Shown: piece after piece, positions 24,042 to 33,098 of the stretch | How positions within the stretch are numbered: the stretch's first letter is position 1 | How the letters are laid out: each line of letters begins with the position of its first letter | NCBI GenBank assembly: GCA_017959745.1 | Contig: JAGDAA010000160.1 | Span: forward strand, 1-33,098 | Origin: Clostridia bacterium | Lineage (GTDB): Bacteria > Bacillota > Clostridia > Oscillospirales > SIG627 | DNA length: 33,098 bases | Direction: 5' to 3' | Program-made: the position numbers and the translations under genes | Notes under the pieces: generated by a model | The model's input: only the letters and a program-made list of their open reading frames with translations | What the model was told of the DNA's origin: nothing | Database searches by the model: none

Positions 24042-24070
24042 TTGACAAAGCGGGGATTATTGTGTAATAT
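24042..24070 (+). promoter_or_regulatory. sigmaA promoter of T-box leader 1
   Basis: TTGACA-17 nt-TAATAT. Confidence 0.78.
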
Positions 24071-24079
24071 ACCCGCATA

Positions 24080-24338
24080 AATGCAAGGATGATATTACGT
24101 TTTCCGGCAATGCTTTCCAAGAGAGCCGCGGCAGGTGTGAAGCGGTAAAGGATCCGGAGGACGGTCTCGTATCGGAGCAGAGCGCCCGAAAGGAAACCGG
24201 TAAGGCGCTACGGGAGATCCCGTTACAGGTCGGGGACTTGCTTGAGTCCCGCAGAGTGGCTGGATTTACAGCAACCCGGGTGGTACCGTGGCAAAAATCG
24301 TTTTGTCATCCCGCGGAGGTTATCTCCGCGGGTTTTTT
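24080..24338 (+). ncRNA. T-box riboswitch, predicted Leu specifier (CUC at 24166-24168)
   Basis: Stem I with AGAGA bulge and GGTGTGAA loop; T-box GGGTGGTACCGTGG at 24278-24291; antiterminator helices CGGG/CCCG and GTGGCAAAA/TTTTGTCAT; overlapping terminator. Confidence 0.92.
24310..24338 (+). terminator. Attenuator terminator of T-box 1
   Basis: CCCGCGGAG-gttat-CTCCGCGGG-TTTTTT; shares its 5' arm with the antiterminator. Confidence 0.88.
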
Positions 24339-24363
24339 GTTTGAAGTGTAGAAAGGAATCGGT

Positions 24364-25752
24364 ATGAAAAAAATCTTCGTCTGCGACTGCACCCTTCCCG
24401 TTCTTACCGGCGAGCGCACCCGCCCGCTTTTGGCGAGAGAAAAGAACGCTCTGGCACAGCGCCTTGACGCGTTGGGCGTGGATATTCTGGAGCTTCCCGC
24501 CGTACGGAACATAAAAGAGGATACCATTATCCATAAGACAATCGCCTCCGGCGTGGGAGGAAGGATACTCGCTGTACCCGCCGGGGACAGTGAGGAAGCT
24601 GTTGATGCCGCCTGGGAGGGTGTTTCCGGCGCGGAAAAGCCCATGTTGACGATCGCGCTCCCGATCTCCACCGTGCAGATGGAGTACCGCTATCACCTGA
24701 AGGAAAACAAGATGGCGGGGAAGGTTAGCGCTCTGGTCGGGTATGCGAAGAAAAAAGGATGTCTTGTGGCGTTTTCCGCCGGCGACGCTTCTCGGGCATC
24801 CGAGCCATTTCTGACGGAGATATCCCGTACCGCTGTCGCCGCCGGCGCCGATTATCTGATCTTCTGCGACGACGCGGGGGATCTTTTGCCTGAGGAACTC
24901 GCCCGCAAGATCCGCTTGGTCAAGGATGCTGTTACGGTGCCCGTTATTGTCTCTCTCTCCGACAGTATCCATTGCGCCTGTGCCAACGCTATAACGGCAT
25001 TGCGCGCCGGCGCGGACGGCGTTCGTTGCGCTGTGACCGGGGCAGACGTGCTTCATACCGGCGCTCTCGCCGCGGCGATTGCCGCGTTGGGCGATACCCT
25101 TTCCATCTCTGTCGGATTGAGGGAAACCGAGGTCCATAATGATATTTCCGAAATGTTAAAGCATGTTTCCTCTTCCCAAAAGCCCGTATCAGGGAGTGAA
25201 TCCGCCGGTGTGATCCTGGACGCTGAAAGCACGCCCGCTCAGATCGGTGAAGCGGTCCGTTCCCTGGGATACGATCTTTCCGCTGACGATTTGGGAAAGG
25301 TCTGCGAATCCGTCGCCCGCATCTGTGAGAAAAAGAGCAGCATCGGGGACGTGGAACTGGAAGCGGTCATCGCTTCTTCCGCTATGCAGGCGCCTTCCAC
25401 CTACCATTTGGTCAGTTATCAGATCACCAGCAGCAACGTTGCCAGGGCAATGGCGAGCATCACGCTCTCCCGCGGGGATGAAACGGTGTGCGGCGTGGCA
25501 ACCGGCGACGGACCCATCGATTGTTGCTTTAAGGCCATTGAACAGTCCATCGGCTACCATTATGAACTGGACGATTTTCAGATCCAGGCGGTGACGGAGG
25601 GTAAGGAGGCTTTGGGCTCCGCGCTGGTCCGTCTGCGCAGTCAGGGAAAACTGTACTCCGGAAACGGTCTCTCCGCCGATATTGTCGGCGCCAGTATCCG
25701 CGCGTATATCAACGCTTTGAACAAGATTGTCTATGAGGAAACAGAAAGATGA
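24364..25752 (+). CDS. LeuA (2-isopropylmalate synthase)-like protein with a degenerate catalytic barrel and intact allosteric domain
   Basis: C-terminal GDGPID...QAVTEGKEALG...G.G.S.DIVGASIRAYINALNK is conserved. DTTLRDGEQ has become DCTLPVLTG and HxHND has become SLSD. Confidence 0.85.
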   Translation: MKKIFVCDCTLPVLTGERTRPLLAREKNALAQRLDALGVDILELPAVRNIKEDTIIHKTIASGVGGRILAVPAGDSEEAVDAAWEGVSGAEKPMLTIALPISTVQMEYRYHLKENKMAGKVSALVGYAKKKGCLVAFSAGDASRASEPFLTEISRTAVAAGADYLIFCDDAGDLLPEELARKIRLVKDAVTVPVIVSLSDSIHCACANAITALRAGADGVRCAVTGADVLHTGALAAAIAALGDTLSISVGLRETEVHNDISEMLKHVSSSQKPVSGSESAGVILDAESTPAQIGEAVRSLGYDLSADDLGKVCESVARICEKKSSIGDVELEAVIASSAMQAPSTYHLVSYQITSSNVARAMASITLSRGDETVCGVATGDGPIDCCFKAIEQSIGYHYELDDFQIQAVTEGKEALGSALVRLRSQGKLYSGNGLSADIVGASIRAYINALNKIVYEETER

Positions 25753-31958: not shown

Positions 31959-32596
31959 AGCGCGTAACCCTGTTTTGCGGGCATTACGGCAGCGGTAAGA
32001 CCAATATCGCCATCAACTACACCAAGTCATTGATTAAACGCGGCTTGCCTGTGACCATCGCTGACCTGGATGTGGTCAATCCCTACTTTCGAACCAAGGA
32101 CAGCGAGGCGGAATTGATCGAAGCGGGCGCGAAGGTCATCACGATGCCCTTTGCCAACAGCAACGTGGATCTCCCGTCCCTTCCCGCTGAGGCATACGCC
32201 CTCGTACAGGACAAAATCCGCTACGCCGTGATCGACGTGGGCGGTGACGACCGGGGCGCTTTGGCGCTGGGTCGGTACGTTCCGTACATCCTGGAGGAAA
32301 ACAACTACGATATGCTCTGTGTCGTGAACTTTTACCGCCCGCTGACTACCACGCCCGGGGAGGCGCTGGAAGTGTTGCGGGAGGTGGAAGCGGCGGCGGG
32401 ACTCCCTTTCACGGGGATCGTCAACAATTCCAATCTGGGAGCGGAGACCACCAGGGAAGCGATAGAAGCGAGCAAGGATAAAGCGGCTGCTTTGTCGAAA
32501 CTTGCCGGCATTCCGGTGCGTTTTACCTCCGTCCGCGCCGACCTTGCCTGTGGCGACGAATTTCCACTTGATTTGCAAAAGAAAATTTTTGAATAG
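31955..32596 (+). CDS. P-loop NTPase of unknown function (MinD/CooC/CobQ-like fold)
   Basis: GHYGSGKT, ADLDVVNPYFRT and IDVGGD; ATGA-coupled to ilvE. Confidence 0.8.
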   Translation: MKRVTLFCGHYGSGKTNIAINYTKSLIKRGLPVTIADLDVVNPYFRTKDSEAELIEAGAKVITMPFANSNVDLPSLPAEAYALVQDKIRYAVIDVGGDDRGALALGRYVPYILEENNYDMLCVVNFYRPLTTTPGEALEVLREVEAAAGLPFTGIVNNSNLGAETTREAIEASKDKAAALSKLAGIPVRFTSVRADLACGDEFPLDLQKKIFE

Positions 32597-32605
32597 GAGA
32601 ACGGT

Positions 32606-32812
32606 ATGGCAAAAGTTACGTTTCAAACCGACCTGTGCAAGGGCTGCGGTCTGTGTGTGGCAGCCTGCCCCAAGAAGATCCTGGTGATTGCCAAGGATAA
32701 GATCAACAAAAAGGGTCATTCCCCTGCCGAAATGACGGATCAGTCCCAGTGCATCGGATGCGCTTTCTGCGCGACTATGTGCCCGGATTGCGTCATTACG
32801 GTGGAAAAGTGA
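32606..32812 (+). CDS. 2[4Fe-4S] delta subunit of a 2-oxoacid:ferredoxin oxidoreductase
   Basis: CKGCGLCVAACP and CIGCAFCATMCPD; directly upstream of vorB. Confidence 0.92.
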   Translation: MAKVTFQTDLCKGCGLCVAACPKKILVIAKDKINKKGHSPAEMTDQSQCIGCAFCATMCPDCVITVEK

Positions 32813-32821
32813 GGTGAGAGT

Positions 32822-33098
32822 ATGGCGGAAAAAGTATTGATGAAGGGCAACGAGGCCATCGCCGAAGCGGCGATTCGCGCCGGTTGCCGCCACTATTTCG
32901 GCTATCCCATCACGCCCCAGACGGAACTGGCGGCGTATATGGCAAAGCGTATGCCCAAGATCGGCGGCGTCTTCCTCCAGGCGGAGAGCGAGATCGCCGC
33001 GATCAACATGGTCTACGGCGTTTCCGGTACCGGTAAGCGCGTCATGACTTCTTCCTCCTCCCCCGGCGTTTCCTTAAAGCAGGAGGGCATTTCCTACA
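32822..33098 (+). CDS. vorB: 2-oxoisovalerate (3-methyl-2-oxobutanoate):ferredoxin oxidoreductase alpha-type subunit VorB, 3'-truncated; absent from the ORF track
   Basis: My translation reads [35 protein letters not shown]...[14 protein letters not shown]...[26 protein letters not shown]. Confidence 0.88.

Follow-up and report, generated by a model that had tools for sequence, protein, structure and literature searches.

A T-box-controlled gene module in uncultured Clostridia that probably builds branched-chain amino acids from branched short-chain fatty acids

Main

The closing part of a 33,098-nucleotide contig from a Clostridia bacterium (JAGDAA010000160.1; the whole of this stretch, which is contig C152 of the source genome, is called the window here) carries, from position 24042 to the contig end, a group of genes that we read as a starvation-induced salvage module making branched-chain amino acids out of exogenous branched short-chain fatty acids, with a rough probability of 0.78. 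Every feature in this region lies on the + strand, and the features form two units, each with its own promoter, T-box leader and terminator. The first unit consists of a promoter, a leucine T-box with its terminator, a gene for a 462-residue LeuA-like protein (pLeuA) and a gene for an 820-residue ligase with an N-terminal TIM barrel (TIM-ligase); the second consists of a promoter, an isoleucine T-box with its terminator, and genes for a 754-residue ligase with an N-terminal helix-turn-helix (HTH) and cupin module (HTH-cupin ligase), the branched-chain aminotransferase IlvE, a 213-residue P-loop protein, a 68-residue 2x[4Fe-4S] protein and the first 92 residues of VorB. A preliminary description, made from the letters of the window, had listed two T-box leaders, two different acyl-CoA ligases, ilvE, a P-loop NTPase, a ferredoxin subunit and vorB, all co-oriented. 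Each of these items was recovered on the + strand, but the list was incomplete: it passed over the LeuA-like gene, the TIM barrel and the HTH and cupin module, and the first gene after the first T-box is this LeuA-like gene and not a ligase.

In the proposed pathway, uncharged tRNA-Leu or tRNA-Ile would lead the cognate T-box to form its antiterminator, and transcription would read through. The TIM-ligase of the leucine unit would activate isovalerate and the HTH-cupin ligase of the isoleucine unit 2-methylbutyrate and, in this genome, perhaps isobutyrate too; relatives have a separate paralogue behind a valine T-box. VorDBAC running in reverse would carboxylate the acyl-CoAs to 2-oxoacids at the expense of reduced ferredoxin and CO2, and IlvE would transaminate these to leucine, isoleucine and valine. 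The dead LeuA paralogue would probably be a leucine-binding partner that exerts feedback on the ATP-consuming committed step, the isovalerate ligase. The same biosynthetic order of acid, acyl-CoA, 2-oxoacid and amino acid had been put forward in the preliminary description, and it is supported here by the specifier codons, the match of the second ligase to MacsMa, a probable second type of sensor in relatives, the distribution of IlvC and the AMP-forming character of both ligases. For pLeuA, the P-loop NTPase and the domains fused to the two ligases, the roles suggested below are putative.

Results

T-box leaders and the ligases that they precede

Both leaders were matched by the Rfam T-box model RF00230 over its full length (model positions 1–219), the first at 24077–24316 (90.5 bits, E = 1.6e-19) and the second at 28286–28530 (71.2 bits, E = 1.5e-14), which together with their promoters and terminators bears out the two T-boxes of the preliminary description. 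Leader 1 (24077–24340, +) has the specifier CUC (Leu) at 24166–24168, the T-box core at 24279–24290 and a terminator stem at 24310–24332 followed by a T-run; leader 2 (28286–28555, +) has the specifier AUC (Ile) at 28374–28376, the core at 28487–28498 and a terminator at about 28519–28555. In both, the specifier codon sits at the position that the Rfam model assigns to the specifier in Stem I. The core GGUGGUACCG is present in both (from 24279 and 28487), each time with an intrinsic terminator downstream, so that both leaders contain the T-box sequence predicted to form the UGGN bulge together with a competing terminator. Candidate sigma-70-like promoters precede them at 24042–24070 (+; TTGACA-17-TAATAT, 10/12 consensus positions, 7 nucleotides upstream of the T-box) and 28246–28274 (+; TTGACA-17-TG-TACAAT, 11/12, with an extended -10 TG), although the consensus scan is weak by itself, having found 5 sites against 5.1 expected from shuffling.

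The leaders were compared across relatives of the locus, which were the best 80 of 487 matches in GTDB species genomes with the LeuA-like protein as query; some counts add the window and so refer to 81 sources. All 80 loci come from metagenome-assembled genomes (MAGs) of uncultured Clostridia, and the record titles of many name ruminant or other animal guts. A T-box core lies upstream of the LeuA-like gene in 62 of the 81 sources, and the specifier is CUC in every one of the 59 leaders that can be read, the other three being cut by contig starts. Among 27 leaders before HTH-cupin ligases, the specifier is AUC in 17 and GUA (Val) in 10, and the four loci with two HTH-cupin ligase paralogues (L020, L054, L061 and L074) have one leader of each kind; two more matches to the motif fell within vorC by chance and are not counted. 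These specifiers follow the phylogeny of the ligases: in a tree of 32 HTH-cupin ligases (quick maximum-likelihood IQ-TREE with SH-aLRT supports only), those behind valine leaders form one clade (9 rows, SH-aLRT 100), those behind isoleucine leaders form two clades of 10 and 7 rows, the 7 including the window and one row with a cut leader, and the 6 members of a distant clade lack a dedicated leader. Because CUC, AUC and GUA track ligase family and paralogue, the T-boxes label the ligases by amino acid as far as their specifier codons can be read, one family for leucine and diverged paralogues of another for isoleucine and valine. A tRNA-Leu(GAG) was found in the MAG to which the window belongs. 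The base that follows AUC is C in the window's nearest ligase clade, as in the window, and the usual A in the other isoleucine clade.

A leader peptide in place of the T-box

No T-box precedes the LeuA-like gene in 19 loci, two of which have too little upstream sequence, and an Rfam search of the T-box-less leaders found none. In 16 of the 17 readable cases the T-box is replaced by an Ile/Leu-rich leader peptide: a promoter is followed by a conserved open reading frame (ORF) of 32–36 codons, within which stands a run such as NILLLIAIIILAI, and then by a hairpin and a strong terminator. The ORF follows the pattern NILLLIAIIILAI...KNSA[VI]CRV, and its isoleucine codons pair with the downstream segment that encodes KNSA. 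The leader lies at L006:9740-10000 and in the same region of L007, L010, L013, L017, L025, L037, L041, L046, L048, L051, L052, L057, L058, L067 and L078. By its sequence, this arrangement looks like classic leader-peptide attenuation; Ile/Leu/Val-rich leader peptides control the enterobacterial ilv and leu operons. The locus would thus come under one or the other of two unrelated sensors of uncharged leucine and isoleucine tRNA, and we therefore take the job of the module to be the supply of these amino acids.

In 11 of the 16 leader-peptide loci, those with enough downstream sequence, a single operon holds the LeuA-like gene, the TIM-ligase, IlvE, the P-loop protein, VorDBAC and the HTH-cupin ligase. 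More broadly, the TIM-ligase gene comes directly after pLeuA in 78 of 80 loci (two are cut off by a contig edge), and 7 nucleotides separate the genes in 61 of the 78. At least three gene orders occur among the 24 loci where IlvE, the P-loop gene and VorDBAC stand beside this pair.

Distribution of the module and of IlvC

A check named in the preliminary description was whether the genome lacks ilvBCD and leuBCD. In the MAG (1.65 Mb, 76.75% complete), LeuB, LeuC and LeuD were not found, nor was any aconitase-family LeuC, and there was no real IlvC, a search for this ketol-acid reductoisomerase (KARI) giving just a 21-bit Rossmann-type match. Among the 51 genomes of the GTDB family, 36 have a pLeuA orthologue, 7 have a true KARI (E ≤ 1e-75) and 4 have both; none of the 19 pLeuA-positive genomes that are at least 90% complete has a KARI.

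The same pattern was seen across the order in an even sample of 301 genomes, of which 298 have a completeness of 90% or more and a contamination of 5% or less. pLeuA (E ≤ 1e-60) occurs in 76 genomes, which represent 12 of 26 families and 37 of 150 genera (75 of the 298 high-quality genomes), and KARI (E ≤ 1e-40) occurs in 146. KARI was present in 7 of the 76 pLeuA-positive genomes (9%) compared with 139 of the 225 pLeuA-negative ones (62%), a negative association. Five further module genomes from other lineages had no KARI (completeness not given).

The HTH-cupin ligase and a possible role in lipid synthesis

The ligase of the second unit (28573–30837, +, 754 residues) has an N-terminal module with Pfam HTH_19 and Cupin_2 domains, for which a sequence search of the Protein Data Bank (PDB) gave no significant match, fused to a ligase of the MacsMa/MbcS type. 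The ligase domain aligns with MacsMa of Methanosarcina acetivorans (PDB 3ETC) over nearly its whole length (E = 1e-186, 625 bits, query 11–527 against chain 52–572). According to a passage of PMC10455477, the preferred substrate of MacsMa is 2-methylbutyrate, which it converts to 2-methylbutyryl-CoA, and according to a passage of PMC10026030, MbcS of Staphylococcus aureus is selective for 2-methylbutyrate and isobutyrate and uses isovalerate poorly. On this relationship and its isoleucine T-box, we propose the HTH-cupin ligase as a 2-methylbutyrate CoA ligase that possibly takes isobutyrate too; because isovalerate is a poor substrate of MbcS, the presence of a different ligase family under the leucine T-box fits this assignment.

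MbcS is the closest named family of the second ligase, and its role is the supply of primers for branched-chain fatty acids (a passage of PMC10026030). An alternative interpretation is that the module chiefly supplies branched acyl-CoA primers for branched-chain fatty acids of the membrane, as MbcS does in S. aureus, the ligases scavenging acids once a route through IlvE and an oxidative VOR runs dry. Since IlvE and an oxidative VOR would yield the same acyl-CoAs, the operon can be read as two supply routes, and rumen bacteria do also make branched fatty acids from these volatile acids. We nevertheless consider a lipid role in place of amino-acid supply unlikely because three amino-acid-specific T-boxes on cognate ligases, and a peptide rich in isoleucine and leucine, report a need of protein synthesis rather than of lipid synthesis; the induction of a degradative IlvE and VOR during amino-acid starvation would be counter-productive; and a lipid-only role does not predict the negative association between pLeuA and IlvC. 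The two roles are not exclusive, and it is possible that the acyl-CoAs feed both.

IlvE, the P-loop NTPase and VOR

IlvE (30885–31958, +) is the sole copy found in the MAG and passes both curated NCBIfam equivalog cut-offs (PRK13357, 471.6 bits against 307; TIGR01123, 394.3 bits against 250). The gene after it (31955–32596, +) encodes a small P-loop NTPase of the SIMIBI class, MinD/ParA/Mrp-like, with a weak Pfam CbiA match, and adjoins VorD in all 24 loci that have VorD. Its look-alike clusters in the Atlas bear CobQ/CobB/MinD/ParA-type names, and its AlphaFold2 model (predicted local distance difference test (pLDDT) 83.8) resembles SRP54/FtsY and the ATPase-type HypB in a Foldseek comparison with the PDB (template-modelling score 0.53–0.65); the PDB sequence search, the Atlas and the model thus all give a generic SIMIBI fold only. 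A NifH- or Mrp-like cluster-bridging role was considered for this protein and rejected because it has no conserved cysteine. No second P-loop gene was found by tblastn in the MAG. A second four-subunit 2-oxoacid:ferredoxin oxidoreductase (OFOR), 34–52% identical to that of the module, is encoded on contig C58 and has no P-loop neighbour.

The window ends within VOR: a VorD-like 2x[4Fe-4S] delta subunit (32606–32812, +, 68 residues; Pfam Fer4, with NCBIfam OFOR delta models all below cut-off) is followed by the N-terminus of the VorB alpha subunit (32822–33098, +, 92 residues; PRK07119, 167.5 bits), which runs into the contig edge. Contig C62 of the same MAG starts inside vorB, and its first 106 nucleotides repeat the last part of the window in the same reading frame, with 93 of 106 nucleotides and 34 of 35 amino acids identical; after the overlap come the rest of vorB, vorA and vorC. 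The VorB fragment on C62 scores 451.4 bits against a PRK07119 cut-off of 399, and a full-length orthologue (L069) 560.6 bits; the beta and gamma subunits match generic OFOR models only, below their cut-offs. Judged by this overlap, vorB of the window very likely continues on C62, and the break is most simply explained by strain variation. With C62 joined, the four subunits stand in the order VorD-B-A-C, as they do in relatives. A further contig, C118, starts with a fragment 94% identical to VorC of C62, which is consistent with strain heterogeneity in the bin.

From the regulation and the genome context we infer that this VOR acts on branched substrates and in the biosynthetic direction. Read the other way, the genes would form a catabolic cluster in which amino acids pass through IlvE and an oxidative VOR to acyl-CoAs and then to acids, the T-boxes being incidental to the direction. 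IlvE is reversible, VOR is annotated and used oxidatively in many anaerobes, and NCBIfam labels VorB a dehydrogenase subunit. Such a direction is nonetheless very improbable, given that T-boxes and leader peptides respond to uncharged cognate tRNA by turning expression on, whereas degradation would call for the reverse, and that the de novo route is missing in most pLeuA-positive genomes, where it would be senseless to degrade scarce amino acids. The two acyl-CoA ligases of the preliminary description (25749–28211 and 28573–30837) are moreover both of the AMP-forming type, with AMP-binding and AMP-binding_C domains, and spend ATP on acids, whereas fermenters use phosphotransacylase and kinase or ADP-forming synthetases; their AMP-forming chemistry fits acid activation rather than an ATP-yielding fermentation.

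pLeuA, a LeuA paralogue without catalytic residues

The first gene of unit 1 (24364–25752, +, 462 residues) encodes a protein with Pfam HMGL-like and LeuA_dimer domains that fails all NCBIfam LeuA equivalog cut-offs (240.5 bits at best, where 532 would be required). The LeuA_dimer match (E = 2.5e-29, residues 328–455) places a predicted allosteric and dimerization domain at the C-terminus. We aligned 81 pLeuA sequences with two true LeuAs from the same GTDB family, taken from genomes (G047 and G049) that have complete leuACDB/ilvBNCD clusters. The Arg-Asp of the TLRDGEQ motif is gone in pLeuA (family consensus TLKKLSE; TLPVLTGER in the window), the family has neither the Glu of the EDA(T/S)R motif nor either His of HxH, and the HEAGIH subdomain is deleted, leaving a gap of about 29 residues. 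Since we take these motifs to have the catalytic and metal-binding roles familiar from LeuA, pLeuA is, as judged from the alignment, a catalytically dead LeuA paralogue. By majority identity, the regulatory domain is the best conserved segment of the protein (0.89, compared with 0.76 for the barrel).

The complex of pLeuA with the TIM domain of the ligase was predicted with a median score of 0.55, the best of three controls scoring 0.00; 40% or more of the contacts recur between runs, and the pLDDT of the partner is 80 or higher. In the calibration of the prediction tool, 58 of 80 solved complexes reach this mark, as do 2 of 110 mismatched pairs, but at scores of 0.60 or below stand only 7 of those 80 solved complexes plus both mismatches. 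With no catalytic residue left in any of the 81 rows, a regulatory domain conserved best of all and a weakly predicted complex, pLeuA may be a pseudoenzyme that has been retained to sense leucine as a partner of the TIM-ligase, a role that we hold at somewhat short of even odds.

The idea that the leucine T-box was inherited from a T-box-leuA unit found no support: a search at E ≤ 0.001 detected no T-box at the true leuA of either G047 or G049. The one T-box in these loci, beside the canonical leuACDB/ilvBNCD genes of G049, has the specifier UGG (Trp) and lies upstream of a trpB-like gene (L086:638-883, -; 99.8 bits). Six pLeuA matches contain one in-frame stop (TAA in G001, G008, G271 and G301; TGA in G122 and G287) and could be pseudogenes, assembly errors or two-piece genes.

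The TIM-ligase

The second gene of unit 1 (25749–28211, +, 820 residues; Pfam AP_endonuc_2, AMP-binding and AMP-binding_C) starts within the stop of pLeuA (ATGA). About residues 1–275 form a xylose-isomerase-like TIM barrel (AP_endonuc_2, E = 1e-16). Conservation of this domain is high, with column identity averaging 79% and no variation at many acidic and His positions. A sequence search of the PDB with the barrel pointed to no specific function (top match MJ1311, E = 0.0013), and the Atlas search returned the generic name 'sugar phosphate isomerase/epimerase' at 0.85–0.87, under the 0.9 bar. From its place behind the leucine T-box and its ligase domains, we propose the protein as a candidate isovalerate-CoA ligase.

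Evidence weighed against amino-acid salvage

Several observations weigh against the salvage reading or qualify parts of it. With regard to regulation, both T-boxes of the window fall under the Rfam gathering score of 93 bits, at which a scan of the window gave no matches, and were found by an E-value search; orthologous leaders in L005 exceed that score (131.7, 113 and 100 bits). The base 3' of the AUC specifier (28374–28377) is C instead of the usual purine, and tRNA-Ile was not recovered in this 76.75% complete MAG. The putative attenuator of the T-box-less loci is read from the peptide, the hairpin and the terminator.

With regard to the de novo pathway, the MAG does have an IlvD-family gene (519 bits against an IlvD cut-off of 618), which lies outside any ilv operon. 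The module is not a strict replacement for IlvC, which occurs in 7 of the 76 pLeuA-positive genomes of the order sample and in 4 of the 36 within the family, and its absence is common in the order, extending to 86 of the 225 pLeuA-negative genomes. We caution that the Fisher test (P = 8e-17) overstates the association between pLeuA and KARI because relatives are not independent. The IlvD/Edd-family gene of the MAG is on contig C8 (L089:1165-2844, -), between a short-chain dehydrogenase/reductase (SDR) oxidoreductase and a NadB/FrdA-like flavoprotein.

With regard to the enzymes, sequence does not disclose the ligase substrates or the direction of VOR, and those given here are proposals. The second ligase scores 444.4 bits with its best NCBIfam model, MbcS, under the equivalog cut-off of 850, and no valine-specific ligase was found in the MAG, in which, at 76.75% completeness, tblastn finds one HTH-cupin ligase. 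The regulatory domain of pLeuA is 29% identical to that of true LeuA and the dead barrel 27%; as the domain is no nearer to true LeuA than the barrel is, its ligand need not be leucine. The TIM-ligase matches no characterized enzyme closely: its best PDB match, to a feruloyl/fatty-acyl-CoA synthetase, is partial (253 bits), and its NCBIfam score (PRK12583, 652 bits) is below the cut-off of 832. Finally, the pair of pLeuA and TIM-ligase stands alone in 10 of the 30 loci with wide flanks, within the view that those flanks allow.

These last points would also fit an interpretation in which the pathway is true for isoleucine and valine and the leucine unit does something other than activate isovalerate, for example if another leucine-related acid were activated or if the TIM barrel or pLeuA were itself catalytic. 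A ligase without a close characterized relative leaves room for this; the conservation of the barrel, down to many acidic and His positions, hints that it does more than dock; and in a third of the wide loci the pair is apart from VOR and IlvE. We regard a separate leucine unit as distinctly unlikely, however, because the CUC codon in all 59 readable leaders links it to leucine supply, and because operons of the L006 type co-transcribe the pair with IlvE, VOR and the other ligase behind a single Ile/Leu leader. Nor were LeuB, LeuC and LeuD found in the MAG, so that a product of the LeuA type could not be carried further there, and every LeuA catalytic residue is lost in pLeuA.

A phenylalanine unit beside the module, and other neighbours

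In six loci the module adjoins a further unit in which a phenylalanine (UUC) T-box is followed by a PaaK-family phenylacetate-CoA ligase and a protein with a pair of ACT domains (L005:16682-18778, where the T-box scores 113 bits, and L004, L018, L047, L070 and L071); PaaK also occurs in L015 and L024. The PaaK-family ligase of L005 scores 531 bits against a cut-off of 646. Phenylalanine may thus be salvaged by a similar logic. A PaaK ligase and an ACT-pair gene also occur in the genome of the window, on contig C55 (L090:822-2543, -), where they follow a HisS-family gene; their identity to the L005 counterparts is 80% and 50%, and no T-box was found at this pair at E ≤ 0.01. At L073:3973-5826, a UUC (Phe) T-box is followed by a short ORF of unknown family and then by a second, more distant PaaK-like gene, which shares 58% identity with the one in L005. 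Positions 1–24000 of the window hold housekeeping genes unrelated to the module.

Discussion

The type of pathway, T-boxes, VOR and ligases of the MbcS/Macs type are already known; the module, the three-way riboswitch labelling of its ligases, the alternative attenuator and the accessory proteins are new as far as our search shows. The preliminary description knew of no account of this locus layout, and our literature search, which covered neither supplementary files nor subscription journals, agrees: it found the physiology, whereas the gene set, the dead LeuA and the T-box triad were nowhere described. The NCBI records name the module proteins 'hypothetical protein', 'AMP-binding protein' and 'AMP-dependent synthetase'.

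It has been known for decades that many fibre-degrading anaerobes need isobutyrate, 2-methylbutyrate and isovalerate for their amino acids, and these acids are used as feed additives; tracer work on the carboxylation was reportedly done by Allison and colleagues in the 1960s. The module would supply a concrete and testable gene set for this need, in which each T-box specifier acts as a built-in label for the amino acid that a ligase serves. The pair of pLeuA and TIM-ligase would serve as a genomic marker for uncultured gut Clostridia that rely on branched acids supplied by cross-feeding, organisms that metabolic models would score as branched-chain amino-acid auxotrophs. If true, a dead LeuA beside a ligase would be a new case in which a pseudoenzyme has become a regulator, and the P-loop protein linked to VOR points to a further requirement of a carboxylating 2-oxoacid oxidoreductase.

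Taken together, the observations allow a wider and more tentative reading, possible in our view, with the odds against its holding as a whole. There would be a family of salvage units for leucine, isoleucine/valine and phenylalanine that share one design, a tRNA-sensing leader, an acid-CoA ligase and a sensor-like protein or domain, and that replace de novo synthesis in about a quarter of the species of the order. Within it, pLeuA would be HisZ-like, binding leucine and inhibiting isovalerate activation while docked on the TIM barrel; the HTH-cupin ligase may be a BirA-like enzyme and regulator, and the P-loop NTPase may be an assembly or activation factor of VOR.

Several parts of the module have known counterparts from which they depart. 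The HTH-cupin ligase resembles MacsMa and MbcS in a ligase domain related to enzymes that prefer 2-methylbutyrate (and, for MbcS, isobutyrate), but it has an additional N-terminal HTH and cupin module of about 230 residues, and unlike MbcS, which feeds fatty-acid synthesis, it is under T-box control in an operon with IlvE and VOR. The VOR has the delta, alpha, beta and gamma layout of VorABCD from archaea and anaerobic bacteria, and its VorB passes the subfamily cut-off, but here a SIMIBI P-loop NTPase always precedes it (24 of 24 loci).

A dead paralogue retained as the partner of a committed-step enzyme has a precedent in HisZ and HisG. By analogy, pLeuA would, like HisZ, be a dead paralogue from the metabolism of the same amino acid and the proposed partner of a committed-step enzyme; it differs in that the partner is a ligase with an unrelated TIM barrel and in that the case is based on adjacency and the complex score of 0.55 against 0.00.

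A leucine T-box with CUC before a leuA-family gene is standard, as for Geobacter leuA in a passage of PMC2700814, and unit 1 shares this arrangement with canonical control of leuA and ilv-leu genes; here, by contrast, the leuA-family gene is dead and ligases, VOR and IlvE are regulated in place of the de novo enzymes. A passage of the same source records a conserved upstream element for 'tryptophan (iorAB-paaK)'. Salvage of aryl acids by iorAB-paaK is like the module in that an acid-CoA ligase is followed by ferredoxin-dependent carboxylation, there for aromatic amino acids, and unlike it in using another ligase family and another oxidoreductase; no IOR adjoins PaaK in the loci that we read.

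Another parallel is the physiology of the rumen. A passage of PMC7356843 gives isovalerate, 2-methylbutyrate and isobutyrate as the precursors of leucine, isoleucine and valine in rumen fermentation, and a passage of PMC2812497 invokes the reductive carboxylation of 2-methylbutyrate for isoleucine in Methanobrevibacter ruminantium. The module resembles these reports in its proposed chemistry and in cross-feeding on branched volatile fatty acids, and differs from them in offering a defined gene set with amino-acid-specific riboswitches, dedicated ligases and accessory proteins.

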